A DNA stretch of 10,730 nucleotides from a virus, in UHGV virus genome UHGV-0119078. One strand, written 5' to 3'. The notes beneath the pieces are model-generated. The model worked only from the letters and a program-made list of their open reading frames with translations, did no database searches and was not told the origin of the DNA. Numbering within the stretch: position 1 is the first letter of the stretch; the number at the start of each line of letters is the position of its first letter. Of the stretch, positions 1 through 10,730 are shown in pieces. The translations under genes were made by a program, and so were the position numbers.

Positions 1-42
1 TAAAATCGAGACCTGGTTTTTCTACTGAAATGATTATGACTT

Positions 43-55
43 CAATGACCCTTGA
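43..55. repeat. Left copy of 13-bp perfect direct repeat CAATGACCCTTGA (candidate attL core)
   Basis: Identical 13-mer at 43..55 and 10676..10688; flanks differ immediately outside the repeat; right copy lies about 90 bp from the start of the large serine recombinase gene. Confidence 0.45.
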
Positions 56-1089: not shown

Positions 1090-1096
1090 GTTCTAT

Positions 1097-1200
1097 CCCT
1101 TCTATATAGCCAACAAAGGCCTGTCTTGCTTGTCTATAGCCATTAAATCAATTATCACAATTGTTGTCTATAGCTACAGCTACCTTTTTATATAGACACT
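1097..1200. promoter_or_regulatory. Cluster of TGTCTATAGC-type motifs in both orientations immediately upstream of the small recombinase gene (candidate res-like/accessory binding region and promoter)
   Basis: TCTATATAGCC 1101..1111, TGTCTATAGCC 1131..1141, TGTCTATAGCT 1165..1175, inverted TATATAGACA 1190..1199; 1165..1199 forms an imperfect 35-bp palindrome (TGTCTATA ... TATAGACA). Confidence 0.4.
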
Positions 1201-1544
1201 TAACGGGCGTTTGTTGTCATGTGTATTTATACAGTTAAAGACCTCGATAGATGCCTTTATAGCAACTCACAGAGAAAGTCAATGATATTTGGCTTTTTTG
1301 CAAAGGGGGTCACATAGCTGGTGTGACGGGTACTTAGCAGACATACAGATATTTTCGAAGATTCGGGGAAGATGAGATTCAAAGAGGGCTAGTCATTTTT
1401 TATAAAAATTTTCAGAGACTGAAAAGTTACTGTACAGATTTTGCACAATCTTACCAAGCCTCATAGTTGATTCGATTAGAAGCTAATCTCATAGAAAGCT
1501 CTGTAGCGAGTTTTAACCCCATTTTTAGGGGTAACCTATAGGGA

Positions 1545-1641
1545 TGTACTAACCACCTTAAAATAAAGGGGTAAAATCGCTTAGAATGCGTTACAGAGCG
1601 TCTGAGAAGCCATATTCACAGATTTTACTAAAGTCTCAGAC
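1545..1641. repeat. Left arm of about 97-bp imperfect inverted repeat (pairs with 4417..4513)
   Basis: Ungapped alignment of 1545..1641 with the reverse complement of 4417..4513 gives about 69% identity, with core blocks 27/31 (1581..1611 vs 4447..4477) and 12/13 (1629..1641 vs 4417..4429); both arms begin with TGT at the outer end. Confidence 0.7.
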
Positions 1642-1661
1642 TTCTAAGTGGTCTTTTTAAC

Positions 1662-1710
1662 AGGAGGGGTTCCCCTATGGTCACATATCCCCTCTCTCTC
1701 CCGCTTAGTG
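1662..1710 (+). repeat. Copy 1 of a three-member motif family: G-rich hairpin followed by TCTCCCGCTTAGTG
   Basis: AGGAGGGGTTCCCCT hairpin then GGTCACAT then TCTCCCGCTTAGTG (1697..1710, identical 14-mer also at 2371..2384). Confidence 0.5.
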
Positions 1711-2114
1711 TCCCTTGATAGTATCTAGAGAGTATGCCTGTAAAACTTCTATATCAGGTCAGATTTAGAGGGTTTGATAGAATCTTCAAAGGTACTTGAC
1801 AGATAACTATGAAGTTGCCAGGAAGGAGTGTTTAACGGGAGGAAAGATACGATATAACCCGAAGGGGAGAGTATCATCTTAACAATTATCTTAAGAATAA
1901 AAACTGAAAAATTCTTAACAGAACTACCAAGAGGGAGCGATAAGACCAGAGGTAGTGACCTTGTTAAATAGGCCGTTTCAAAGCTCTTAAGAGTTTGTTA
2001 AGTAATGGCTATGTGAACAATCTTACCACTTTGTCAATGCTTTTGTCTTTGACCTAAATCAATAAAATGTATCGTTTGATGCACTTTTAAACAAAATAGC
2101 TAAAAAATCTTTTT

Positions 2115-2163
2115 AGAGGGGCGCTTCGCTTGGGGTCACTATGTTCTTTCTCTCCCGTTAAGA
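2115..2163 (+). repeat. Copy 2 (divergent) of the G-rich hairpin / TCTCTCCCG motif family
   Basis: AGAGGGGCGCTTCGCTTGGGGTCACT ... TTTCTCTCCCGTTAAG; shares GGGGTCAC and TCTCTCCCG with the copies at 1662 and 2338. Confidence 0.4.
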
Positions 2164-2337
2164 GGGAAGTTACAGGGACATTTCAAAGCCCTGATAAGGT
2201 AAGCCCGATGATAACAGAAACAGAGGGCAAAACCACTTATCAACACTGTGAACGAATAACGTAAAGGGCTGGTTAAGAAGGTCGGTTTAGGGATTGGTAG
2301 ATGATTCGGATGAAGCATCCTCATAACAATACCAATT

Positions 2338-2384
2338 AGAAGGGAGCTTCCCTTTCTTGGGTGTCGCTCTTCTCCCGCTTAGTG
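2338..2384 (+). repeat. Copy 3 of the G-rich hairpin / TCTCCCGCTTAGTG motif family
   Basis: AGAAGGGAGCTTCCCTTTC hairpin then TCTTCTCCCGCTTAGTG; 14-mer 2371..2384 identical to 1697..1710. Confidence 0.5.
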
Positions 2385-2413
2385 GATTGATTAAGAAGAC
2401 CTCTGAAGTTTCT

Positions 2414-2584
2414 CTGTGAAGGTGCTGGACAGCCTTATATATGGCTAATTACAACTTATTGAAAAATAAGAACTTTTAGAAGTTACTGTTAAGGTTACGG
2501 AGTTAACTGTGAAGAGACTTGTCAGTTCTCTATATATGGCTAATTACAACTTATTGAAAAATAAGAACTTTTAGAAGTTACTGT
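2414..2584 (+). repeat. Tandem direct repeat, two units (2414..2489 and 2507..2584) with a perfect 54-bp core (2436..2489 = 2531..2584)
   Basis: Core TATATATGGCTAATTACAACTTATTGAAAAATAAGAACTTTTAGAAGTTACTGT is identical in both units; each core holds a 6-bp stem with GAAA tetraloop (CTTATT-GAAA-AATAAG) and an adjacent 5-bp hairpin (AACTT-TTAG-AAGTT); units share CTGTGAAG upstream with a divergent linker. Confidence 0.75.
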
Positions 2585-2684
2585 CAGAGAGGTGAATACT
2601 TGATAGATACAGCTTTCCGGTTCTGTCAAGAGGTTTCACTACCCACCAGCTAAAAATATTTCAGAGGCGGGAGTGATGGGGGGG

Positions 2685-2861
2685 TTAGGACGGGTCTTTG
2701 TGGTCATTATCCTTAAGGTCAAGCGTCCATGTACGACCGAACAGTTTAAAGACAACAAGCACTCTGACGAGGACGTAGCGGAGTAACAGACCTGCAATCA
2801 GCCCGATACCTCCACCAGCCCATACATCAGGTGACCCCAGTTCAGGAGGGAGATTTACCAT
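2685..2861 (-). CDS. Candidate small membrane protein (58 aa from internal ATG with AGGAAA SD-like sequence; 70 aa if started at 2897)
   Basis: ORF encodes one strongly hydrophobic segment (WAGGGIGLIAGLLLRYVLVRVLVVFKLF) followed by a charged tail; locally GC-richer than surroundings. No recognisable family; could be spurious. Confidence 0.3.
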   Translation of the reverse strand: MVNLPPELGSPDVWAGGGIGLIAGLLLRYVLVRVLVVFKLFGRTWTLDLKDNDHKDPS

Positions 2862-2913
2862 TAAATTTCCTGTGTGCAATGCAATACCATGTGACATACA
2901 TAGTTGATTCGGT

Positions 2914-2938
2914 TAGTTGGGCTTGTACCAACCCCTAT
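2914..2938. repeat. Right copy of 25-bp direct repeat TAGTTGGGCTTGT(T/A)CCAACCCCTAT
   Basis: 24/25 identity with 111..135; lies just upstream (on the minus strand) of the small membrane ORF and about 90 bp upstream of the 3026 promoter. Confidence 0.6.
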
Positions 2939-3025
2939 CGAATAAACCTCATAGCCACGCCTTTATATTTTACTCTCCCCATAGAACCATTATACCACAG
3001 ATGTTAATAAAATGTTAAAAAATAC

Positions 3026-3054
3026 TTGACATTAGTCTTTGAAAATGCTAGTAT
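3026..3054 (+). promoter_or_regulatory. Sigma70/SigA-type promoter for the 3106..4417 operon
   Basis: Consensus -35 TTGACA (3026..3031), 17-bp spacer, extended -10 TGcTAGTAT (3046..3054), followed by ATTGTATATATA element shared with the 4553 promoter. Confidence 0.55.
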
Positions 3055-3105
3055 TGTATATATAAGTTAACAGAATAATAACATCTTATGAGGGTCGGAA
3101 CATGA

Positions 3106-3663
3106 ATGAGAGACGCAGAATTTAGAGCGATGCTTCAGGCATCGAGACAACGTAACAAGCACAACTCCTACGCTTACACAAACTCCCCCACCAGCCACGA
3201 ATTACCCAAGTTTACCAAGAAAGAACGCAAAGGCATTGACGAAGTAATTCGGGCAATTACACCGAGGAACCGTTACATGCCAACACGCAAAACAACAAAG
3301 AACAGCATCAAGAATTATCTGGCTAGCTTTGACAGCTACGCGCAACTACCGAGCAAGCTTGATGATATTTTTATTGGATTTTGCAGAAGCGAGGGTCACC
3401 AGAAATACAACCAGAAGGTTTTTTATTTACTGCGAAGTCTTGATGAAATTAACTCAGCCACCGTGACAAATCATCTTCAGCGTCAAGCAACCAGACTTAG
3501 CCATGAATTACCAAGCGATAAATATTGCGCTTTGCTTGCTGTAATGTGCGCAAAGTTAATTGGTGTTGTTGAGCATCATATTGCCGTTGGAAATATTGAG
3601 CCAATGGAAAACGAGCAACCAGATTTCGAGTTTGACCCGTATTTAGTTACAGAGGAATTTTAA
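3106..3663 (+). CDS. Hypothetical protein (185 aa), basic N-terminus, acidic C-terminal tail
   Basis: Intact ORF directly downstream of the predicted promoter; GAGGG SD-like sequence upstream; stop codon directly abuts the next ATG (TAAATG). No family recognised. Confidence 0.65.
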   Translation: MRDAEFRAMLQASRQRNKHNSYAYTNSPTSHELPKFTKKERKGIDEVIRAITPRNRYMPTRKTTKNSIKNYLASFDSYAQLPSKLDDIFIGFCRSEGHQKYNQKVFYLLRSLDEINSATVTNHLQRQATRLSHELPSDKYCALLAVMCAKLIGVVEHHIAVGNIEPMENEQPDFEFDPYLVTEEF

Positions 3664-3942
3664 ATGAAGAAACACACTTTGACCCGTATTTCAGAGGAAG
3701 CTTTTAACGAGCTTACCAGAATTAAACGAGCTACTAACTTGCCTCATCAAACTGTAATGCAGCTTGCAATTGCTAAAGAGGTCACTGAGTCGGATTTACT
3801 TAAATATCCAGTCTCTAAAGGTCGTAAGCACATCCGAATTACTCAGGACGCTTTAGATACTTTGAAGGCACTTAACGGCTTTAAGATTGATATTGCCCGA
3901 CTATTGAGCATCAAAATTAACAAGCTATCTCAAGAGGTCTGA
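3664..3942 (+). CDS. Hypothetical small protein (92 aa)
   Basis: ORF tightly packed between the upstream and downstream genes (2-nt gap to next ATG), consistent with an operon. No family recognised. Confidence 0.6.
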   Translation: MKKHTLTRISEEAFNELTRIKRATNLPHQTVMQLAIAKEVTESDLLKYPVSKGRKHIRITQDALDTLKALNGFKIDIARLLSIKINKLSQEV

Positions 3943-3944
3943 CT

Positions 3945-4217
3945 ATGAAGCAATGGCGAGATGATATTAAACGGTTCTTTGCAACTTACTTCATGATTAA
4001 TTACGAAACAGGAATGCTTGAATGGATTGATGGTGGAGAGGTTAAGACAAGAGATGACGCTTACGGTAATCCAATGATTCGTTATGGCACTCGTGATTAT
4101 TATGTGAAATATGTCATCTGGTTTTTGCATCATGAAGTTCAGGCAACTAAAAAAATTATCTTCAGGGATGGTAATAAAAGAAATTGCCACCCAAACAATT
4201 TACTACTGGAGATTTAA
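3945..4217 (+). CDS. HNH-like small protein (HNH_3-type fold), probably degenerate at the catalytic histidine
   Basis: 90-aa ORF with NYETGMLEW (matches the Y-x-ETG-x-x-x-W N-terminal signature of phage HNH_3 proteins) and a C-terminal IIFRDGNKRNCHPNNLLL block aligning with the IDHxDGN...N..NL HNH core, but with Phe/Arg where the catalytic His is expected. Confidence 0.5.
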   Translation: MKQWRDDIKRFFATYFMINYETGMLEWIDGGEVKTRDDAYGNPMIRYGTRDYYVKYVIWFLHHEVQATKKIIFRDGNKRNCHPNNLLLEI

Positions 4218-4417
4218 TGCTATGTATTAAATTCGAATATTTGACAGATAAAATGATTAAGCATGTATCAGACCTGCTCATCAAAGAAGGTGGTTTCGGT
4301 GATGCTTGCAATCCAAAAGATATCTTCATTCATGCCACCAGCCCAAACGCAACACTAAAGACAGCAGTTACAGCGGAATGGTTTGAACGAAATAAAGCGG
4401 AATTAGGTTATTGGTAG
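4217..4417 (+). CDS. Hypothetical small protein (66 aa), translationally coupled to the HNH-like gene
   Basis: ATG at 4217 overlaps the upstream TAA stop (TAATG); GGAG 5 nt upstream. The longer ORF-track start at 4184 lacks an RBS. No family recognised. Confidence 0.45.
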   Translation: MLCIKFEYLTDKMIKHVSDLLIKEGGFGDACNPKDIFIHATSPNATLKTAVTAEWFERNKAELGYW

Positions 4418-4552: not shown

Positions 4553-4581
4553 TTGACAAATAACCTTAAGCATGACATAAT
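4553..4581 (+). promoter_or_regulatory. Sigma70/SigA-type promoter for the 4923..9034 gene set
   Basis: Consensus -35 TTGACA (4553..4558), 17-bp spacer, extended -10 TGaCATAAT (4573..4581), followed by ATTGTATATATA (4580..4591), identical to the element at 3053..3064. Confidence 0.5.
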
Positions 4582-4848
4582 TGTATATATAGGGAGAGCA
4601 ATTCTCCTTGAATTAAACTATTAATCGTTCTACATCAATGATAGTTGTTTTGAGTTGGAAAGGTGCAATGCTTTTCGTCATGGCCTATTTAGCCCACACT
4701 AGATAGGCTATCTCAAAAAGTACTCTTGTTCATTCGTTTGAATCCCTTAGATGTTTTAATTTCTTCACCTTATGAATGGCCCTTTATAAGAAATTATCTA
4801 GGGCTATTCAGTTTTTAAAAAGCATACTTGGCAAACCGCCTTTTAAGT

Positions 4849-4913
4849 CTCTTCTAAGTTTGTAGGCTGTCAGGTGTGCTTTTTAAAAACTGAAATACTT
4901 TAGCTTAGAAGAG
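4849..4913 (+). promoter_or_regulatory. 5-prime-UTR hairpin predicted to sequester the ribosome-binding site of the 4923 gene
   Basis: Perfect 10-bp inverted repeat CTCTTCTAAG (4849..4858) / CTTAGAAGAG (4904..4913) with a 45-nt loop; the 3-prime arm overlaps the SD (GAAGAGG) 10 nt upstream of the ATG; the UTR from the predicted promoter is about 330 nt. Confidence 0.35.
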
Positions 4914-4922
4914 GAAAAAACA

Positions 4923-5633
4923 ATGACAAACGATATTTACATTAACGGTAAAAAGATTGATAGCTTCGGTGACTGGTCGCCACAGACTGAACATCCAGCT
5001 ATCACTATTCAGCGTAAAGAACACGATGAAAGAATTAAGCTTGAGCAATCGTTAAAGATGTCACCAAAGGTAATTTCCTTTGTGTCTCCTGAGCCTCAAG
5101 AAATGCCAGATATCTGCAAAAGTGAAGCACTATTTAATCTTGAGCGTGAATACTACCCACAGTTAAAAGAACAGCGTATTCGACTTGATGACGCTTACAG
5201 CAAAGTTACCCTGATGCAATCAGCTATTGAGCCATCAGAATTTGAGATTCAGGATGAATTGTCACAGAAACCATTTGTCTATTACCAATATGAAGACAAT
5301 GATGGTTTTGGTACTTTTCCTGAGAATATCCCAGACGTGATTAATAATCTTTCTGACGGATATCGAATTGTGAAGATGATTGGAGCTTCAAGAGGTGCTG
5401 GTCAGTTTATTTACATGACCAATAAGAGCGATGAAGAACTCCGTGAAATTGCCAGACAGAACATCTTAGCATCACGTAACAAGCAACTTGAAAATGTTAA
5501 GTTGTGTCTCTTAAGAGAGCTTCAGGCTATGAAAGACCTTATTTCTGCATATGAAACGCAGAAGAAGGTTGCTATGCAGGCTGATATTGAGCAGTTAGTG
5601 AAGATTTCTCAGAAATACGCAAAGGCACTTTGA
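4923..5633 (+). CDS. Hypothetical protein (236 aa) with predicted C-terminal coiled coil
   Basis: Intact ORF with AGAGGAA SD-like sequence; no family recognised by inspection. Confidence 0.65.
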   Translation: MTNDIYINGKKIDSFGDWSPQTEHPAITIQRKEHDERIKLEQSLKMSPKVISFVSPEPQEMPDICKSEALFNLEREYYPQLKEQRIRLDDAYSKVTLMQSAIEPSEFEIQDELSQKPFVYYQYEDNDGFGTFPENIPDVINNLSDGYRIVKMIGASRGAGQFIYMTNKSDEELREIARQNILASRNKQLENVKLCLLRELQAMKDLISAYETQKKVAMQADIEQLVKISQKYAKAL

Positions 5634-5658
5634 CTATGAATTAAAAAGGAGGTGATGA

Positions 5659-5862
5659 ATGTTTGATTTAACGGAACGCTATGAACTTATTAAAGCAATT
5701 AGCGAGAGATTGAAAGAACAACCCAACAAACCAAAACGAATCAAATCATCCACCTCTAGGCAAAATAGCAGAATCAGAAGAATCGCTAAATGGTGTCTTG
5801 ATAAATTACCAAGTGATTGTCAGATTGTCGGTGAAGATGGTAATTATTATCTGATTAGATAA
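5659..5862 (+). CDS. Hypothetical small basic protein (67 aa)
   Basis: Strong SD AAAGGAGGTG 7 nt upstream of the ATG; lysine/arginine-rich central segment (KPKRIKSSTSRQNSRIRRIAKW), suggesting nucleic-acid binding. Confidence 0.55.
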   Translation: MFDLTERYELIKAISERLKEQPNKPKRIKSSTSRQNSRIRRIAKWCLDKLPSDCQIVGEDGNYYLIR

Positions 5863-5909
5863 AGAATTGGTTGGGTGTATGAGATAGGTTCTATCGAATC
5901 TATAACACG

Positions 5910-5951
5910 GGGAGAGATTATCGATATTATTCGGTAGTTTCTCCCTTTTTT
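5910..5951 (+). terminator. Possible intrinsic terminator/attenuator between the 67-aa gene and the tape-measure-like gene
   Basis: GGGAGA (5910..5915) pairs with TCTCCC (5940..5945) around a 24-nt loop containing the palindrome TATCGATA, followed by T6 (5946..5951). The long loop makes this weaker than a canonical terminator. Confidence 0.3.
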
Positions 5952-5980
5952 GTATATGAAACTTAAGAGGTGAAATATGA

Positions 5981-8107
5981 ATGAGCAAATTCACAGTTGA
6001 TAGTTTTATCGTTGAGTTAGGCTTCAGCGAGAACGTTATTAAGGGCTTGCAAAGAGTTGAAAAAGCAGCTTTGCAGTCAGCACAAAGAATTGAAAAGAAC
6101 CTAAATAAAGGCTTCAAGATTAATACAAAGCAACTTGACAGTAATCTGACAAGTTCTTTGAAGTCAATGGAAGGGAAAATTAATAAGACCTTTGACCGTC
6201 TGGAAGCTAGAGCAAGAAATACTAGAGTTTTCCGTTTCACAAGTCAGGTTAATGACGTTATTAATCCGCCAAAACAACCGAGGCCAAGAAGAGTTACTAG
6301 TGACCGAGCTATTACAGCGGCTTATTCAGCGAATATGACTAAGCTGAAAGGTCTTAACCCAATTGTCGAGAAATACATTAAGAGTCAGTTTTACGCATTA
6401 AGTAGTAAAGCTGGTCAGATGGATAACACCAAGTTTAATGAAGCCCTTGCTAAACTAAATTCAAGTGTACGAGAAGCAATTGCTAAAGCCAGAGGTCATA
6501 CATCCACCAGCATTAACGGTGACAGAGCAGCTAATAGTCTTGATAGTTTGAGTTCAGCAGCAGTTAAAACAGCAGGTGCATTTATCAGCTTTCAGGCTGT
6601 ACTATCCGCTTATCAGAAGATTATGGAAGTTGGCCTTCAACGTGCATCATCGGAAAGAAGTATTGATTTCGTATTCGGTGACCAAAGTACACAGGTCAAA
6701 AAGTTCATTCAAGATTTAACTCAAATTACTGGTATGGACACAACCGAAACACAAGCACAGTTTGCTTCATTTGGTGCATCTGCAAAAAATACGATGGGTC
6801 TTGAAGGCTCAGAGGAATTATTTAAAAACTTAACTGGATATGCCCGTTTAATGGGTCGTTCAGATGAGCAGATTCAAAGAGCATTAACCGCAGTATCGCA
6901 GATGGCTTCTAAGGGTCAGGTGATGGCTGAAGAGCTTAAGGGGCAACTATCTGAAGCTTTACCGGGTGCTACTCAGGCATTTGCAAAGGCTTTAGGTCTG
7001 ACTGAAAAACAGCTTTTCGATAAGATGAAAAATGGTGATGTTAAAGCCTCTGATGCACTCCCTAAGTTTGCTAAAGAACTTGGTTCACAGATTAATTCCA
7101 GAGGTGGCTGGAAAGCTATTCAGGACTCTACGCAGACGATGTTAGGGAACTTAAAGAATACTTGGAACAACTCACTAACGGATATCTTCAGAGGTTCTGA
7201 AAATGGTCTTCAAGATTTCACAAGAAGCTTAACCAATCTTTTAAATAGTCTTGGTGGGAGTGGTAAAACATTAGGTGAAAGTCTTGGTAATCTCATGACT
7301 TCTATGTCACACGGTGTCGATAACCTGACTGATATTAGTTACAGGGTAAGGGCGTTCTTTGACGAGGTGACATTGGCTTATCGTTCACTAAATGACACTC
7401 AGAAAAAAATTGTTGATGGCCTATCTGATGGGTTAATTGATGGTTTGAAGATGCTTGCTGTAGCTGTTACTGCTCAAAAGGCTGCAAATGTAGCTGGAGG
7501 CTTGTTAAACCTTGCAAATGCTGTTACTTCATTCGGTGACGCTGTTAATAAAGCTAAAGCTGGCAAGGCTGGTTCTTCAGGTGGTGCGCTAAATAAAGTT
7601 GGTAGAGTTGTTCTTTATGCTGAGTTGGTGAACTTTGCTCTTGATAATTTAAACCCTGAAGCGGCTAAGAATCCGAACTTACACCAATCAGGTATTGGAA
7701 CAGAGACAAACTTCAACCCTGAATACAAAGGCGATTCATCTAAACCAAACCAAATTAATGATGGATGGGCTAAGATTGGTGGTTCTATCGCTGACTGGTT
7801 TAATGGTGCAGCTAATAAAATTGCTAACTTCCAAGAACCGATGAATAACTTCGTAAATAACACACAATCAACTCCACCAGCTATCGACACGGTTAATAGC
7901 AATGCTCAATTAGCTATGGCTGTATCAGAGTTAGGAAGAAAGGTAGACGCTTTAACAGCAGAAACTAAGAAGCCCTTGTCACTTAATATCAAAGGTGAAG
8001 CAATTGTTAGGCCGGATGAACCATCTTTCTTTATTTTCAATCAATCGGCTAATGACCAGTTCACGCAGGATATGCTCTTAAGTTCAAGCTATCCAGAAGA
8101 AGAATGA
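5981..8107 (+). CDS. Tape-measure-protein-like protein (708 aa)
   Basis: Central block GQVMAEELKGQLSEALPGATQAFAKALGLTEKQLFDKMKNGDVKASDALPKFAKELG resembles the conserved core of phage tail tape measure proteins (recalled from memory, not searched); alpha-helical, Ala/Gly/Ser/Asn-rich, low-complexity C-terminal part; AAGAGGTGA SD. Coding confidence is high; the functional call is moderate. Confidence 0.55.
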   Translation: MSKFTVDSFIVELGFSENVIKGLQRVEKAALQSAQRIEKNLNKGFKINTKQLDSNLTSSLKSMEGKINKTFDRLEARARNTRVFRFTSQVNDVINPPKQPRPRRVTSDRAITAAYSANMTKLKGLNPIVEKYIKSQFYALSSKAGQMDNTKFNEALAKLNSSVREAIAKARGHTSTSINGDRAANSLDSLSSAAVKTAGAFISFQAVLSAYQKIMEVGLQRASSERSIDFVFGDQSTQVKKFIQDLTQITGMDTTETQAQFASFGASAKNTMGLEGSEELFKNLTGYARLMGRSDEQIQRALTAVSQMASKGQVMAEELKGQLSEALPGATQAFAKALGLTEKQLFDKMKNGDVKASDALPKFAKELGSQINSRGGWKAIQDSTQTMLGNLKNTWNNSLTDIFRGSENGLQDFTRSLTNLLNSLGGSGKTLGESLGNLMTSMSHGVDNLTDISYRVRAFFDEVTLAYRSLNDTQKKIVDGLSDGLIDGLKMLAVAVTAQKAANVAGGLLNLANAVTSFGDAVNKAKAGKAGSSGGALNKVGRVVLYAELVNFALDNLNPEAAKNPNLHQSGIGTETNFNPEYKGDSSKPNQINDGWAKIGGSIADWFNGAANKIANFQEPMNNFVNNTQSTPPAIDTVNSNAQLAMAVSELGRKVDALTAETKKPLSLNIKGEAIVRPDEPSFFIFNQSANDQFTQDMLLSSSYPEEE

Positions 8108-8263
8108 TTTAACGGTGTTCTACGTGAATAAAGCAAAGTTAATACCCGCACTGAAAAATAATTTTTACGTAGCTCACGCTTAACAGAGAAAATACTTATA
8201 TATCAAAGGCTTGGTTAAAAATGATTAAAATACACTAAGCCTTTGAAATCAAAGGAGAATTTA

Positions 8264-9034
8264 ATGATTTTTAGCAATCAAATCCGCTACAGTGGCAAAG
8301 ATGGCGTTTACTTCCACTTAAGAGATAATGTAGATGCCTTCTTAACCTTATCAGCAACTGAACAGATGGAATATGACAGCCCTATGATGGTGACAACTCA
8401 GGCTATGCAATCGGGGCAAACTATAACTGATAATGTTCAGAGAGCACCTAAGACCATCTCTATTAGCGGTGTTGTAGTGGTTGATTCGACGGGTTCAGTT
8501 CTATTAACCAGACAGGGGCAACTTGTAGAAACCTTTATTTCTACGGTTGAACAATGGCGAGACCAGAAGCAAATCATCACTATTGTTTGTAAAGATGGAA
8601 TATCTATCACTGATAGTATCATTACTCAGTTTAAAGCGAGTAAAGAGCATACCATTGCTAATGGTCTTCGTATTCAGATGACCTTCCAAGGTGTAGAATT
8701 TCGTTCAATCGTAGGTCAAACTGATATTTCAGCAGCAACTGGAAAGACCGCTACCACGAATGATGGCGGTTCTACCAGTAAAAAGAACACTGGCAACACT
8801 ACAACGAGTCTTGGAAGCCCTATGCTGACCTGTAAAGAGCTTTTTAGCTATTCGGCAAGTGAGTTATCAGATGAAGCGCTAAAAGCCCGTGTAACGTGCT
8901 CTAAGAGCGTTAGCGTTAAAAATGGTGAGAGCACCTTCACAGCCTCAGCTAATGAGCAAGCTTCAAAGGTGCTTAAGTCGGGTAATGCTTTACGGAAGTT
9001 TTCTGTAAATCCGAACAAGAAGGGCACTTATTGA
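8264..9034 (+). CDS. Hypothetical protein (257 aa from ATG 8264), possibly tail-associated given its position after the tape-measure-like gene
   Basis: AAAGGAG SD 6 nt upstream of ATG 8264 (the ORF-track TTG start at 8243 has no RBS); Ser/Thr/Gly-rich central linker. No family recognised. Confidence 0.55.
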
Positions 9035-10587: not shown

Positions 10588-10675
10588 GGTGATAAACTCC
10601 CATGCAATTGATTATCATTTAAAGATGAACTTATAAACGTTATGGCTAATGCTACAATGCCGAATAGCTACAATA

Positions 10676-10688
10676 CAATGACCCTTGA
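10676..10688. repeat. Right copy of 13-bp perfect direct repeat CAATGACCCTTGA (candidate attR core)
   Basis: Identical to 43..55; lies about 90 bp outside the integrase start. Confidence 0.45.
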
Positions 10689-10730
10689 TTTACCTCGCCG
10701 CTTCCCCTGGCCGACGTTACTTTCGGTCTG

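Follow-up and report, generated by a model that had tools for sequence, protein, structure and literature searches.

A complete integrative island at tonB of Escherichia coli with tail genes of Felix O1-like phage ancestry, a probable phage satellite

Borders and gene content of the island

The window, i.e., the whole stretch of DNA analysed (UHGV-0119078, 10,730 nt), contains a complete 10,633-bp (10.6-kb) integrative island of the E. coli chromosome. The island extends from window position 43/56 to 10675/10688 and is wider than the segment 4923-9034 considered in a preliminary description of this DNA. A 13-bp direct repeat is present at both its borders, with the tonB start codon lying inside the repeat, and positions 1-55 and 10676-10730 of the window, which overlap by 13 bp, together match an uninterrupted 97-bp stretch of E. 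coli DNA from an empty site. Because both junctions and the direct repeat are located within the window, the island is not the truncated end of a larger prophage, an alternative raised earlier and now ruled out. The 13-bp core is identical in all members of the island family residing at the tonB site. The reconstructed attP contains the inverted half-sites CCGAATAG/CTATTCGG, and its junction was also found in two circular contigs, L012 and L018.

Table 1. Features of the tonB island and their window coordinates
Feature	Position	Strand	Basis or remarks
attL core	43..55		13-bp direct repeat CAATGACCCTTGA, left junction
Small serine recombinase, 191 aa	514..1089	-	resolvase/invertase type with C-terminal HTH; PF00239 2e-37; phrog_125 2e-56
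Conserved ORF-free block, phage-like cis-sequences	1090..3105		conservation and sequence sharing with phage
Patches in the ORF-free block	1911-1967, 2288-2339		
Perfect 54-nt direct repeat in the ORF-free block	2436-2489 and 2531-2584		
Small hydrophobic ORF, 58 aa per RefSeq	2685..2861	-	annotated in NZ_AP027844
Divergent promoter-like sites in the ORF-free block	near 2989-3054		
185-aa and 92-aa proteins, replication-module slot	3106..3942	+	position matches the initiator slot of relatives
Small HNH endonuclease (90 aa) and 66-aa ORF	3945..4417	+	PF13392 4e-5; phrog_959 5e-5; named HNH endonuclease in RefSeq
236-aa island-specific core protein	4923..5633	+	coiled-coil hairpin and small alpha/beta domain (AF2, pLDDT 81)
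67-aa basic island-specific core protein	5659..5862	+	motif KWCxDxxPSDxQIxGE
Intrinsic-terminator-like hairpin and U-tract	5909..5946	+	16-bp stem followed by a T-run; directly upstream of the TMP ribosome-binding site
Tape measure protein (TMP), 708 aa	5981..8107	+	Felix O1-like (Ounavirinae) ancestry; PF20155, phrog_4036, Bas63 gp017
Tail-tube initiator	8264..9034	+	Dit-like fold with C-terminal extension; Bas63 gp018, PF21821, phrog_3721
Large serine recombinase (LSR), integrase, 506 aa	9067..10587	-	PF00239, PF07508, PF13408; phrog_95 3e-78
attR core	10676..10688		tonB start codon (ATG, 10678) lies within it

The element was called integrase-bearing earlier, which is correct as regards the LSR, whose gene abuts attR, but it codes for two serine recombinases (506 and 191 aa, both on the minus strand) and not one. 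Islands at other chromosomal sites have a different LSR (29% identity), and the small serine recombinase is found in most family members, not in all. The slot occupied by the genes for the 185-aa and 92-aa proteins contains in the relatives L007, L008, and L009 a gene for a 319-aa replication initiator (phrog_8102, 2e-11; phrog_428, 1e-10). The 185-aa protein gave no family match in Pfam, PHROG, or NCBIfam, and its AF2 model is poor (pLDDT 45). The 58-aa hydrophobic ORF, divergent from the main operon, is 79% identical to its homolog in strain D10 and matches no family. Pfam and PHROG profile scans revealed no capsid, portal, terminase, sheath, or tube genes in the island, which bears out what had been stated about the first three.

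The four ORFs proposed earlier for the proteins of 236, 67, 708, and 263 aa, the last one at 8243-9034, were all confirmed. The first two proteins were thought to have no assignable function, and family searches and structural comparison gave none. The 236-aa protein belongs to no Pfam, NCBIfam, or PADLOC family, none of 50,697 phage genomes encodes a homolog, and the sole structural neighbours of its AF2 model are generic coiled coils; the name "transposase" is unsupported by any Pfam or NCBIfam family. Its gene (dN/dS 0.26-0.43) always lies upstream of that of TMP, even where the protein is only 31% identical. The gene for the 67-aa protein is conserved in all islands examined, being an uncalled ORF in L033, and its product has no family, PDB, or phage homolog. 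The solved PLE1 TAC (5IR0, cited in PMC12987554) was absent from the PDB matches of both proteins. The terminator-like structure preceding the TMP gene is kept across six islands, with compensatory changes in the inner stem and folding z-scores of -3 to -4.8.

Tail genes and non-coding DNA shared with Felix O1-like phages

The 708-aa protein, described earlier as tape-measure-like, is a genuine TMP. It matches PF20155 (4e-18), TIGR02675 (8e-15), and phrog_4036 (2e-84), with scores above the curated cut-offs (66.2 bits vs 41 for PF20155 and 55 bits vs 21 for TIGR02675), as well as gp017, the TMP of Bas63 (chain 9ndy_F, 1e-69). Its best phage matches are all from Ounavirinae, with at most 38% identity. 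The first ca. 30 amino acids share 78% identity with the phage TMP, whose C-terminus, LLSSSYPEEE, recurs unchanged in the island protein; in the body, identity is ca. 20-35%, with one central block of ca. 50-63%. The C-terminal 25 residues of the Bas63 TMP are located in the hub (PMC12609058). The suggestion that the domain might be a tape-measure-like module of a non-virion protein is rejected, because the 708-aa protein is collinear with the virion TMP and retains both the N- and C-terminal docking ends. The gene has a dN/dS of 0.24-0.36 and shares synteny with its Felixounavirus counterpart, lying upstream of the initiator gene. IS insertions are frequent in the TMP genes, that of the deposited source strain included, an observation that counts against the satellite reading presented below.

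The TMP had been taken for the sole recognisable virion protein. The 263-aa protein is a second one; its ORF had been noted as coding for a Ser/Thr-rich protein, but its identity as a tail-tube initiator was missed. It is homologous over its full length to gp018 of Bas63, the structure of which has been solved (9ndy_A, 2e-106, residues 11-263), and matches PF21821 (3e-17; 63.5 bits vs a cut-off of 24.2) and phrog_3721 (3e-128). The ATG at 8264, giving a protein of 256 aa, is the start preferred by RefSeq and by the alignment with Bas63, and the TTG at 8243 gives the 263-aa form. Its identity with the initiators in 253 Ounavirinae records amounts to 65-72%, and strong purifying selection acts along the entire protein (dN/dS 0.11-0.2).

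Direct homologs of both proteins form the Felixounavirus tail core (Bas63 gp017 and gp018, PDB 9ndy), with the same gene order as in the island. The two systems share the full-length initiator and three parts of the TMP, namely ca. 70 residues at the N-terminus, the central domain, and the tail at the C-terminus that binds the hub. They differ in that the island genes are chromosomal and form part of an integrative island from which the other ca. 10 baseplate/tail genes are missing. Moreover, the island TMP is 27-34 residues shorter, and the TMP and initiator genes, overlapping in Felixounavirus, are separated in the island by a 156-nt spacer.

The ORF-free block is a second link from the island to Felix O1-like phages, besides the tail genes. 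It is 70-88% identical in nucleotide sequence in diverged islands, and indels within it break the reading frame. Its 8-mer sharing shows a unique peak at 49.1-50.6 kb of phage garuso (robust z 7.5; 436-446 observed vs 215±26 in shuffles). Among 50,697 phage genomes, only phages of a size and with hosts typical of Felixounavirus matched the block; two of the matches were confirmed as Felixounavirus by taxonomy and one is identical over 51/51 nt. On the phage side, the shared cis-DNA lies in a large region devoid of ORFs in Felix O1-like phages. The block has no Rfam match and its covariation is negligible. It was probably copied from the large non-coding region of the phage, and may play the role of an origin, pac, or a regulatory mimic.

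The island family and known phage satellites

The TMP-initiator module is present in 480 of the 5,426 complete E. coli genomes (about 9%). Members of the family reside at no fewer than three chromosomal sites (tonB, wrbA, and lpxL-proximal), with the LSR differing between sites, and are hosted by Escherichia, Shigella, Salmonella, and Citrobacter, genera matching those of the Felixounavirus hosts. Their layout is conserved, comprising the small serine recombinase, the replication module, the 236-aa and 67-aa genes, the TMP, the initiator, and the LSR, and the compact architecture of ca. 10.6-11.7 kb is found in hundreds of genomes. In five islands, the four core genes have remained intact and show purifying selection (dN/dS 0.1-0.4). 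Precise excised circles of 11,253 bp with attP junctions, derived from a close relative, are present in two read sets independent of each other. Neither IMG/VR nor the JGI metagenome contigs contain the attP junction, which counts against the satellite reading, and the IMG/VR matches to the island are prophage-style calls from genomes.

PLEs, satellites that integrate by means of an LSR and have a virulent myovirus as a helper, carry genes for TAC, TMP, and hub proteins (PMC12987554). The island resembles them in being a small LSR-integrated chromosomal island with, presumably, a virulent myovirus as a helper, in encoding its own TMP and a baseplate/tail-initiation protein distantly related to those of the helper, and in having interchangeable replication modules. 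In comparison with ICP1 the identity is 20% for the PLE TMP and 41% for BhuB, and in comparison with the phage versions it is ca. 31% for the island TMP and ca. 65-72% for the initiator. The PLE TMP is shorter than that of the helper, resulting in chimeric, shorter tails (PMC12987554). The differences concern the host (Enterobacteriaceae vs Vibrio), the helper lineage (Ounavirinae vs ICP1), the size (10.6 kb vs ca. 18 kb), and the second tail gene, coding for a tube initiator in the island and for a hub protein in PLE; moreover, the island has no TAC homolog and no recognisable TcaP (capsid-remodelling), NixI (nuclease), or CapR-type gene. Its Escherichia host and the Ounavirinae ancestry of its tail genes set it apart from the PLE family, outside of which it would, by analogy, work in a PLE-like manner.

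Putative E. coli satellites of phages of the Justusliebigvirus type (Inny, Muut, and Mt1B1_P17), reported by Barth et al. (PMC10055350), are also flanked by att sites and carry TMP and a baseplate component with most tail genes missing, and a subset of them has a serine recombinase, like the island. They differ from it in carrying genes for the major capsid and decoration proteins as well as for a RepA_N initiator, neither capsid nor RepA_N matches being found in the island, in having mostly a tyrosine integrase at tRNA genes instead of an LSR at tonB, and in being tied to Stephanstirmvirinae and not to Ounavirinae. With no capsid-family match, an LSR at tonB, and another helper lineage, the island belongs neither to these capsid-gene satellites nor to cfPICIs. 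Five accessions with the island family are absent from those parts of the supplementary files of Barth et al. (PMC10055350) that were covered. Pfam, PHROG, and NCBIfam scans of all island ORFs revealed no marker genes of P4-like elements (psu/sid/delta/alpA/primase) or PICIs (alpA, pri-rep, terS or ppi/rpp), and membership in these groups was rejected. Tail assembly is also the target of the Tai systems of PICIs, P4-like elements, and prophages and of the PLE11 Rta, likewise borne by mobile elements (PMC11364771; PMC12987554), but these are small inhibitors and not structural homologs of tail proteins, while the island carries full-length structural genes. A search for known anti-phage defence systems (PADLOC 2023, with a library comprising neither Tai nor Rta) gave only spurious weak coiled-coil matches.

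Functions proposed for the island

The island, a complete and active integrative element, is probably a PLE-like satellite, a hijacker of tail assembly, of virulent Felix O1-like phages (Ounavirinae). It has its own recombinase and att sites and is capable of excision, as indicated by the LSR, the 13-bp core at both ends, and the attP circles of the close relative, and its virion gene set is incomplete, with only the TMP and the tube initiator present, which suggests that it would depend on a helper for particles. The phages from which the tail genes derive are virulent ca. 86-kb Ounavirinae (Felix O1-like myoviruses) without an annotated integrase, so the earlier proposal to look for a co-resident prophage whose tail genes match does not apply. 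Of the readings offered in the preliminary description, i.e., a satellite-like element, a decayed prophage, or a non-virion protein, the first is favoured by the completeness of the island, its own att sites, the selected and widespread family, the circles, tail genes and a non-coding block derived from a single phage group, and the PLE precedent; the other two have been rejected. The satellite reading has against it that the island showed neither a homolog of a tail assembly chaperone nor any capsid-size-redirection, terminase, or recognisable pac function, and that no signature of a phage-encoded anti-island nuclease was detected.

A tail module left over from a formerly complete temperate phage, persisting beside its integrase, would explain the presence of an integrase with just two virion genes and the IS insertions in TMP of some strains. 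Such a decayed prophage is hardly credible, given the intact att junctions, the existence of a precise attP circle, an architecture recurring in hundreds of genomes at three sites, intact ORFs under purifying selection, tail genes originating from strictly virulent phages, and no phage homologs in the rest of the island; a degraded prophage would instead be expected to show pseudogenisation, lack of selection, irregular remnants, and temperate-phage homology. It is also very unlikely that the island is an integrative mobilizable element or a recombinase-driven cassette, in which the tail genes are phage-captured passengers without a role. Recombination with Felixounavirus DNA clearly occurs, as seen in the 51/51-nt identity, and the island initiators are about equally close to those of phages and to one another, but the TMP-initiator pair together with the 236-aa and 67-aa genes constitutes the invariant core of the family, with the other modules being variable, the tail genes are under purifying selection, and Pfam/NCBIfam scans detected no relaxase, oriT, or conjugation genes in the island.

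A purely defensive island is unlikely as well. Its TMP and initiator would be dominant-negative decoys, co-assembling with the baseplate of infecting Felix O1-like phages, aborting their tail assembly, and protecting the clonal population, and the island, never packaged, would spread vertically or via generalized transduction/recombination. This would agree with the lack of packaging and capsid genes, with the free form missing from viral and metagenome collections (IMG/VR, JGI), and with the conserved terminator, which would gate TMP expression; tail-assembly interference is a documented means of defence, exemplified by the Tai systems (PMC11364771) and PLE11 Rta (PMC12987554), and in other bacteria small serine recombinases mark defence cassettes (PMC13552941). 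A full-length TMP with both docking ends and an initiator selected over its whole length are, however, superfluous for a decoy, and the replication module, precise circles, interchangeable LSRs, and copied cis-region point to an induced extrachromosomal stage. Defence overlaps with the satellite reading and is not exclusive of it, because both functions coexist in PLE.

As a satellite, the island would reside at the 5' end of tonB, where it had been inserted by the LSR, and would be precisely excised to a circle, presumably upon infection by a Felixounavirus, whose identity as the helper at the strain level we infer. Replication would proceed via its own module, with the phage-derived non-coding block possibly serving as ori, pac, or a regulatory mimic, and the TMP and tube initiator would be expressed from behind the conserved terminator. 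Both have kept the relevant parts, i.e., the phage-like N-terminus and hub-docking C-terminus of the TMP and the tube-like domain of the initiator, and should therefore be able to nucleate tube assembly on the phage baseplate hub, giving rise to chimeric, slightly shorter tails in particles that would package and transfer the island. The phage's own tail assembly would thereby be diverted or poisoned, as experiments have shown for the PLE satellites of ICP1; candidate helper-interfering or assembly factors are the 236-aa and 67-aa proteins. That a so far undescribed satellite family has copied a phage cis-element for replication/packaging and swaps in its own TMP and initiator, crippling phage tail assembly through chimeric tails, is put forward tentatively, as a proposition falling a little short of probable. 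If true, it would provide an enterobacterial counterpart of PLE-ICP1 in a genetically tractable host and with the structure of the helper virion already solved. The earlier view that a satellite contributing a tail component is unusual now holds only in part, since reports of satellite-encoded TMPs appeared in 2023-2026.

Boundaries, excision and distribution of the island

Window positions 1-55 and 10676-10730 together match a contiguous 97 bp of tonB-adjacent E. coli DNA with a 13-bp overlap, and the island is therefore 10,633 bp in size. The att core CAATGACCCTTGA includes ATG ACC CTT GA, the insertion point being exactly the 5' end (start codon) of tonB, whose ORF is unbroken at the right junction. 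The native upstream region of tonB (promoter, Fur box, RBS context) has been moved 10.6 kb, to the left junction, and the gene is now preceded by island DNA (10588-10675), divergent from the gene of the large serine recombinase (LSR). Insertion at the start codon may alter TonB expression, which could affect iron uptake and sensitivity to TonB-dependent phages and colicins. The sequence of E. coli 2017.18.02CC (NZ_AP027844) shows 100% identity to the window, with the gene for the tape-measure protein (TMP) split there by IS5; TMP is intact in the same island in other assemblies. GCA_052769725.1 and GCA_043978835.1 are island-positive genomes in which TMP is not disrupted. The window is not the truncated end of a larger prophage, a case considered in the preliminary description, since both junctions lie inside it and the same island is found in other assemblies.

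A homolog of the 236-aa protein, 39% identical, led to a closely related island at an equivalent site in another enterobacterium (L010), and to two contigs from independent read sets, L012 (SRR22802630) and L018 (ERR11042405), in which the element is circularly permuted and devoid of host flanks. The ends of L012 overlap by 27 bp and are joined at the 13-bp core; its unit of 11,253 bp is the exact core-to-core distance of L010. The reconstructed attP, with inverted half-sites CCGAATAG/CTATTCGG flanking the core, is identical across the family; together with the circular contigs joined at the core, this indicates that excision of the island by the LSR system is precise. The attP junction was absent from the IMG/VR and JGI metagenome contigs, and the seven IMG/VR matches to the 236-aa protein lie on contigs of 14-50 kb.

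Of 5,426 complete E. coli genomes, 480 carry the module comprising TMP and the adjacent tail-tube initiator gene, always on the chromosome and mostly with 76% to 95% identity to the window. The common layout consists of a small serine recombinase, an optional Dam methyltransferase, a replication module, small ORFs, the 236-aa and ~67-aa genes, TMP, the initiator, and LSR. It is kept at the tonB site (elements of 10.6 to 11.7 kb), at the ymdF/wrbA site, where LSR is 29% identical, and, with a 236-aa homolog of just 31% identity, at an lpxL-proximal site. In five islands, none of the four core genes is disrupted and all evolve under purifying selection; island initiators resemble the phage initiator as closely as they resemble one another. 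The 236-aa family is narrow (19 clusters at 50% identity among 1.8 billion representatives), with hosts in Escherichia, Shigella, and Salmonella, while among species-representative genomes the initiator is found in E. albertii, Citrobacter, and Shigella; the genera carrying the island family are those infected by Felixounaviruses. The 185-aa protein of the window is recorded on at least 1,000 Shigella sonnei contigs, suggesting that the island is widespread or fixed in this species.

Features of the island, with dN/dS values calculated for five islands
Feature	Position in the window	Strand	dN/dS	Remarks
att direct repeat CAATGACCCTTGA	43-55 and 10676-10688			bounds the island; contains the tonB start codon
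Small serine recombinase, 191 aa	514-1089	minus		
Patches within the non-coding block	1911-1967 and 2288-2339			up to 51/51 nt identity to the Felixounavirus non-coding repeat region
Small ORF, 58 aa (RefSeq)	2685-2861	minus		hydrophobic segment (GGGIGLIAGLLLRYVLVRVLVVF); conserved
236-aa gene	4923-5633	plus	0.26-0.43	
67-aa gene	5659-5862	plus		
Hairpin (16-bp) with U-tract	5909-5946			between the 67-aa gene and the TMP ribosome-binding site
TMP	5981-8107	plus	0.24-0.36	
Tube initiator	8264-9034	plus	0.11-0.2	
LSR, 506 aa	9067-10587	minus		

Links to Felix O1-like phages

The four ORFs named in the preliminary description are all present at the coordinates it gave, and the tape-measure-like character ascribed there to the 708-aa product was borne out: it is a bona fide TMP by PF20155 (4e-18; 66 bits, cut-off 41), TIGR02675 (8e-15), and phrog_4036 (2e-84), and it matches gp017 (9ndy_F, 1e-69), the TMP of Bas63, a Felixounavirus with a solved tail. 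The 263-aa protein had been called only Ser/Thr-rich, which missed its membership of the Dit-like tail proteins (PF21821 3e-17; phrog_3721 3e-128); its sequence makes it a full-length homolog of the Bas63 tail-tube initiator gp018 (PDB 9ndy_A, E 2e-106). Its start is most likely the ATG at 8264, which gives 256 aa and matches the RefSeq annotation. A PADLOC match of TMP to ZorA was dismissed as coiled-coil noise.

Apart from patches of the non-coding block found by sensitive blastn, TMP and the initiator are the only parts of the island with nucleotide matches in phage genomes, almost all of them ~86-kb Felix O1-like phages of Escherichia, Salmonella, Shigella, and Citrobacter. In the Felix O1-like Escherichia phage garuso, in whose genome no integrase is annotated, the homologs garuso_118 and garuso_119 are located side by side inside a full structural module. 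When every island ORF was compared with the whole garuso genome by tblastn, TMP and the initiator gave the sole matches, the initiator with 65% identity over its full length and TMP with 31% overall. The best phage TMPs among 50,697 phage genomes all belong to Ounavirinae and none exceeds ~38% identity; the nearest phage initiators, also all from Ounavirinae, are 66-72% identical.

The TMP of the Bas63 virion is gp17, whose C-terminal 25 residues lie in the gp20/gp21 hub, and gp18 forms the hexameric tube initiator adapting the C3 hub to the C6 tube (PMC12609058). The island and phage TMPs are 78% identical over the first ~30 residues and share an identical C-terminus, LLSSSYPEEE, while the body is ~20-35% identical except for one central block of ~50-63%. 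The island TMP has thus kept its docking ends and diverged in its body. At 708 aa it is shorter than the phage TMP (735-742 aa), from which tails shorter by about 4-5 nm would be predicted. In tonB-site islands the TMP and initiator genes are separated by a 156-nt spacer (8108-8263) with an inverted repeat (8195-8215 / 8234-8254); they abut or overlap in the phage as well as in L033, a distant island. An appreciable share of E. coli genomes have TMP, and occasionally the initiator gene, interrupted by IS5, IS2, IS3, IS21/ISEc12, or IS100, including NZ_AP027844, otherwise identical to the window; target size or selection against TMP expression may account for these insertions.

The region 1090-3105 contains no ORF longer than 70 aa, and in diverged islands it shows 70-88% nucleotide identity, with frame-breaking indels and long invariant patches. 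Its 8-mer content was compared with sliding windows across the whole garuso genome, and the top windows fell uniquely at 49.1-50.6 kb, in a large ORF-free repeat region between convergent gene ends. The two share 446 8-mers, compared with a genome-wide median of 224 (robust z 7.5) and with 215±26 (maximum 293) in shuffled controls; the signal was replicated in two related islands (L010, z 5.3; L032, z 4.5) and was absent from coding controls. Sensitive blastn of window 1640-2480 against the 50,697 phage genomes matched 30 records, ~83-98-kb (mostly 85-89-kb) phages of Escherichia, Salmonella, or Shigella, with 29 of the 30 matches in unannotated phage DNA; both of the two matched phages that were checked are classified as Felixounavirus. 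A 36-nt patch is 89-92% identical in about 25 phages, and the 51-nt patch with full identity matches phage NBEco005 (E 8e-24, local comparison). The longest exact match between island non-coding and phage DNA, 16 nt against a shuffle maximum of 18, is not longer than chance, and the signal is visible only by match clustering, k-mer and BLAST analysis. The non-coding block links the island to Felix O1-like phages a second time, independently of the tail genes.

A CTTAACAG/GTTAAG motif recurs in the block. In the literature searched, no documented role was found for the ORF-free region of the phages; that region, like the island block, may plausibly be an origin, a packaging/terminus site, or a regulatory array. 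Rfam gave no match, either at the gathering threshold or at E≤1, and the covariation term obtained for the conserved block with RNAalifold (-2.3 kcal/mol) is negligible, so that a structured RNA is unsupported. A perfect 54-nt direct repeat (2436-2489 and 2531-2584, 95-nt spacing) has a leftward promoter-like site in each copy, and the two copies may drive transcription across the block toward the small recombinase gene.

Interpretation of the island and its known analogues

A satellite-like element, one of the options of the preliminary description, is the best supported reading, given the complete element, the conserved family, the excision, and the two links to Felix O1-like phages, and it is the one towards which we lean. 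The absence of capsid, portal, and terminase genes noted there holds for the whole island, and no tail assembly chaperone, capsid-remodelling, or packaging functions were identified in it. The main rival, a defence island serving as a decoy and not transduced, overlaps mechanistically with the satellite reading and is considered rather unlikely. A decayed prophage remnant, also proposed initially, is rejected because the element is complete and its core genes are intact and under purifying selection. Satellites remodelling the tails of their helpers are already known; the unusual addition in this satellite-like element is the copied phage non-coding region.

PLE of Vibrio cholerae, an LSR-integrated satellite of the virulent myovirus ICP1 (PMC12987554), is the closest functional analogue of the island. 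It encodes its own chaperone, TMP, and baseplate hub, the chimeric tails being about 10 nm shorter than those of the phage, and in PLE11 the 80-aa Rta protein blocks the phage TMP (PMC12987554). The island and PLE are alike in the LSR and in the virulent myovirus helper, presumed for the island, which also follows a PLE-like logic: it encodes a TMP of its own whose body has diverged, a baseplate-proximal partner that has diverged less, and small island-specific proteins beside the tail genes. With a different host, helper, and gene content, the island is not itself a member of the PLE family. The putative E. coli satellites of Barth et al., tied to Stephanstirmvirinae, carry capsid and decoration genes, RepA_N, and mostly tyrosine integrases at tRNA genes (PMC10055350); the island differs from them in capsid/decoration genes, RepA_N, integrase and site, and phage lineage. 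No prior description of a Felix O1 satellite or of a tonB/yciI island was found in the literature searched, the coverage of which was incomplete.

To our knowledge, satellites of virulent phages are known in detail for Vibrio only (PLE, PICMI), and satellite-encoded TMPs with chimeric tails were first demonstrated in 2026. An E. coli analogue would open to test the reason for tail remodelling, the selection of a foreign TMP and initiator in assembly, and the role of the large non-coding region of the phages, with the BASEL and Felix O1 phages, the Bas63 cryo-EM structure, and E. coli genetics as existing tools. Felix O1-like phages are widely used in Salmonella and E. coli biocontrol and typing, and their presumed targeting by a common family could therefore affect phage-therapy outcomes.

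Regulatory signals, small proteins and replication module

The structure of the hairpin preceding TMP is kept in six islands, with compensatory changes in the inner stem and folding z-scores of -3 to -4.8. Since this conserved, terminator-like hairpin lies ahead of TMP, read-through or antitermination probably controls expression of TMP and the initiator. The sequence TGTATATGAA in the TMP leader was considered as a motif resembling a phage late promoter and discarded, the phage genome showing no enrichment for it. A 27-nt inverted repeat (4807-4894; 89% complementary, 34-nt spacer) closely precedes the 236-aa gene and may be an operator or terminator for the late operon; upstream of the repeat there is a near-consensus promoter-like site (4553-4581).

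The 236-aa protein is modelled confidently (pLDDT 81) as an antiparallel coiled-coil hairpin with a small alpha/beta domain. Structural comparison gave no informative neighbour, homologs are absent from the phage genomes, and the 'transposase' label given to the protein is unsupported. The 67-aa protein is basic, conserved family-wide, and without a homolog outside the family. A programmed frameshift joining the two ORFs, as in chaperone G/GT, is excluded by stop codons. The 58-aa ORF is divergent from the main operon and adjoins promoter-like sites (2989-3054); it may encode a small membrane toxin or a protein resembling holins.

Where the window has the genes for the 185-aa and 92-aa proteins, relatives carry a 319-aa replication initiator (phrog_8102 2e-11, phrog_428 1e-10), which suggests that replication modules are exchangeable. 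The AF2 model of the 185-aa protein is unusable (pLDDT 45). No phage homologs of the island replication proteins were found, and hence there is no arms-race signature of the Odn (anti-island nuclease) type. A 25-nt direct repeat (111-135 and 2914-2938, 96% identity) with internal dyad symmetry (TAGTTGGGCTTGTxCCAACCCCTAT) brackets the small-recombinase gene together with the non-coding block, and an 18-nt repeat (1462-1479 and 2899-2916) lies beside it; these repeats could be candidate sites of the small serine recombinase, for resolution or deletion of the 2.8-kb segment. In many relatives, the match to the window starts only at about 2400.
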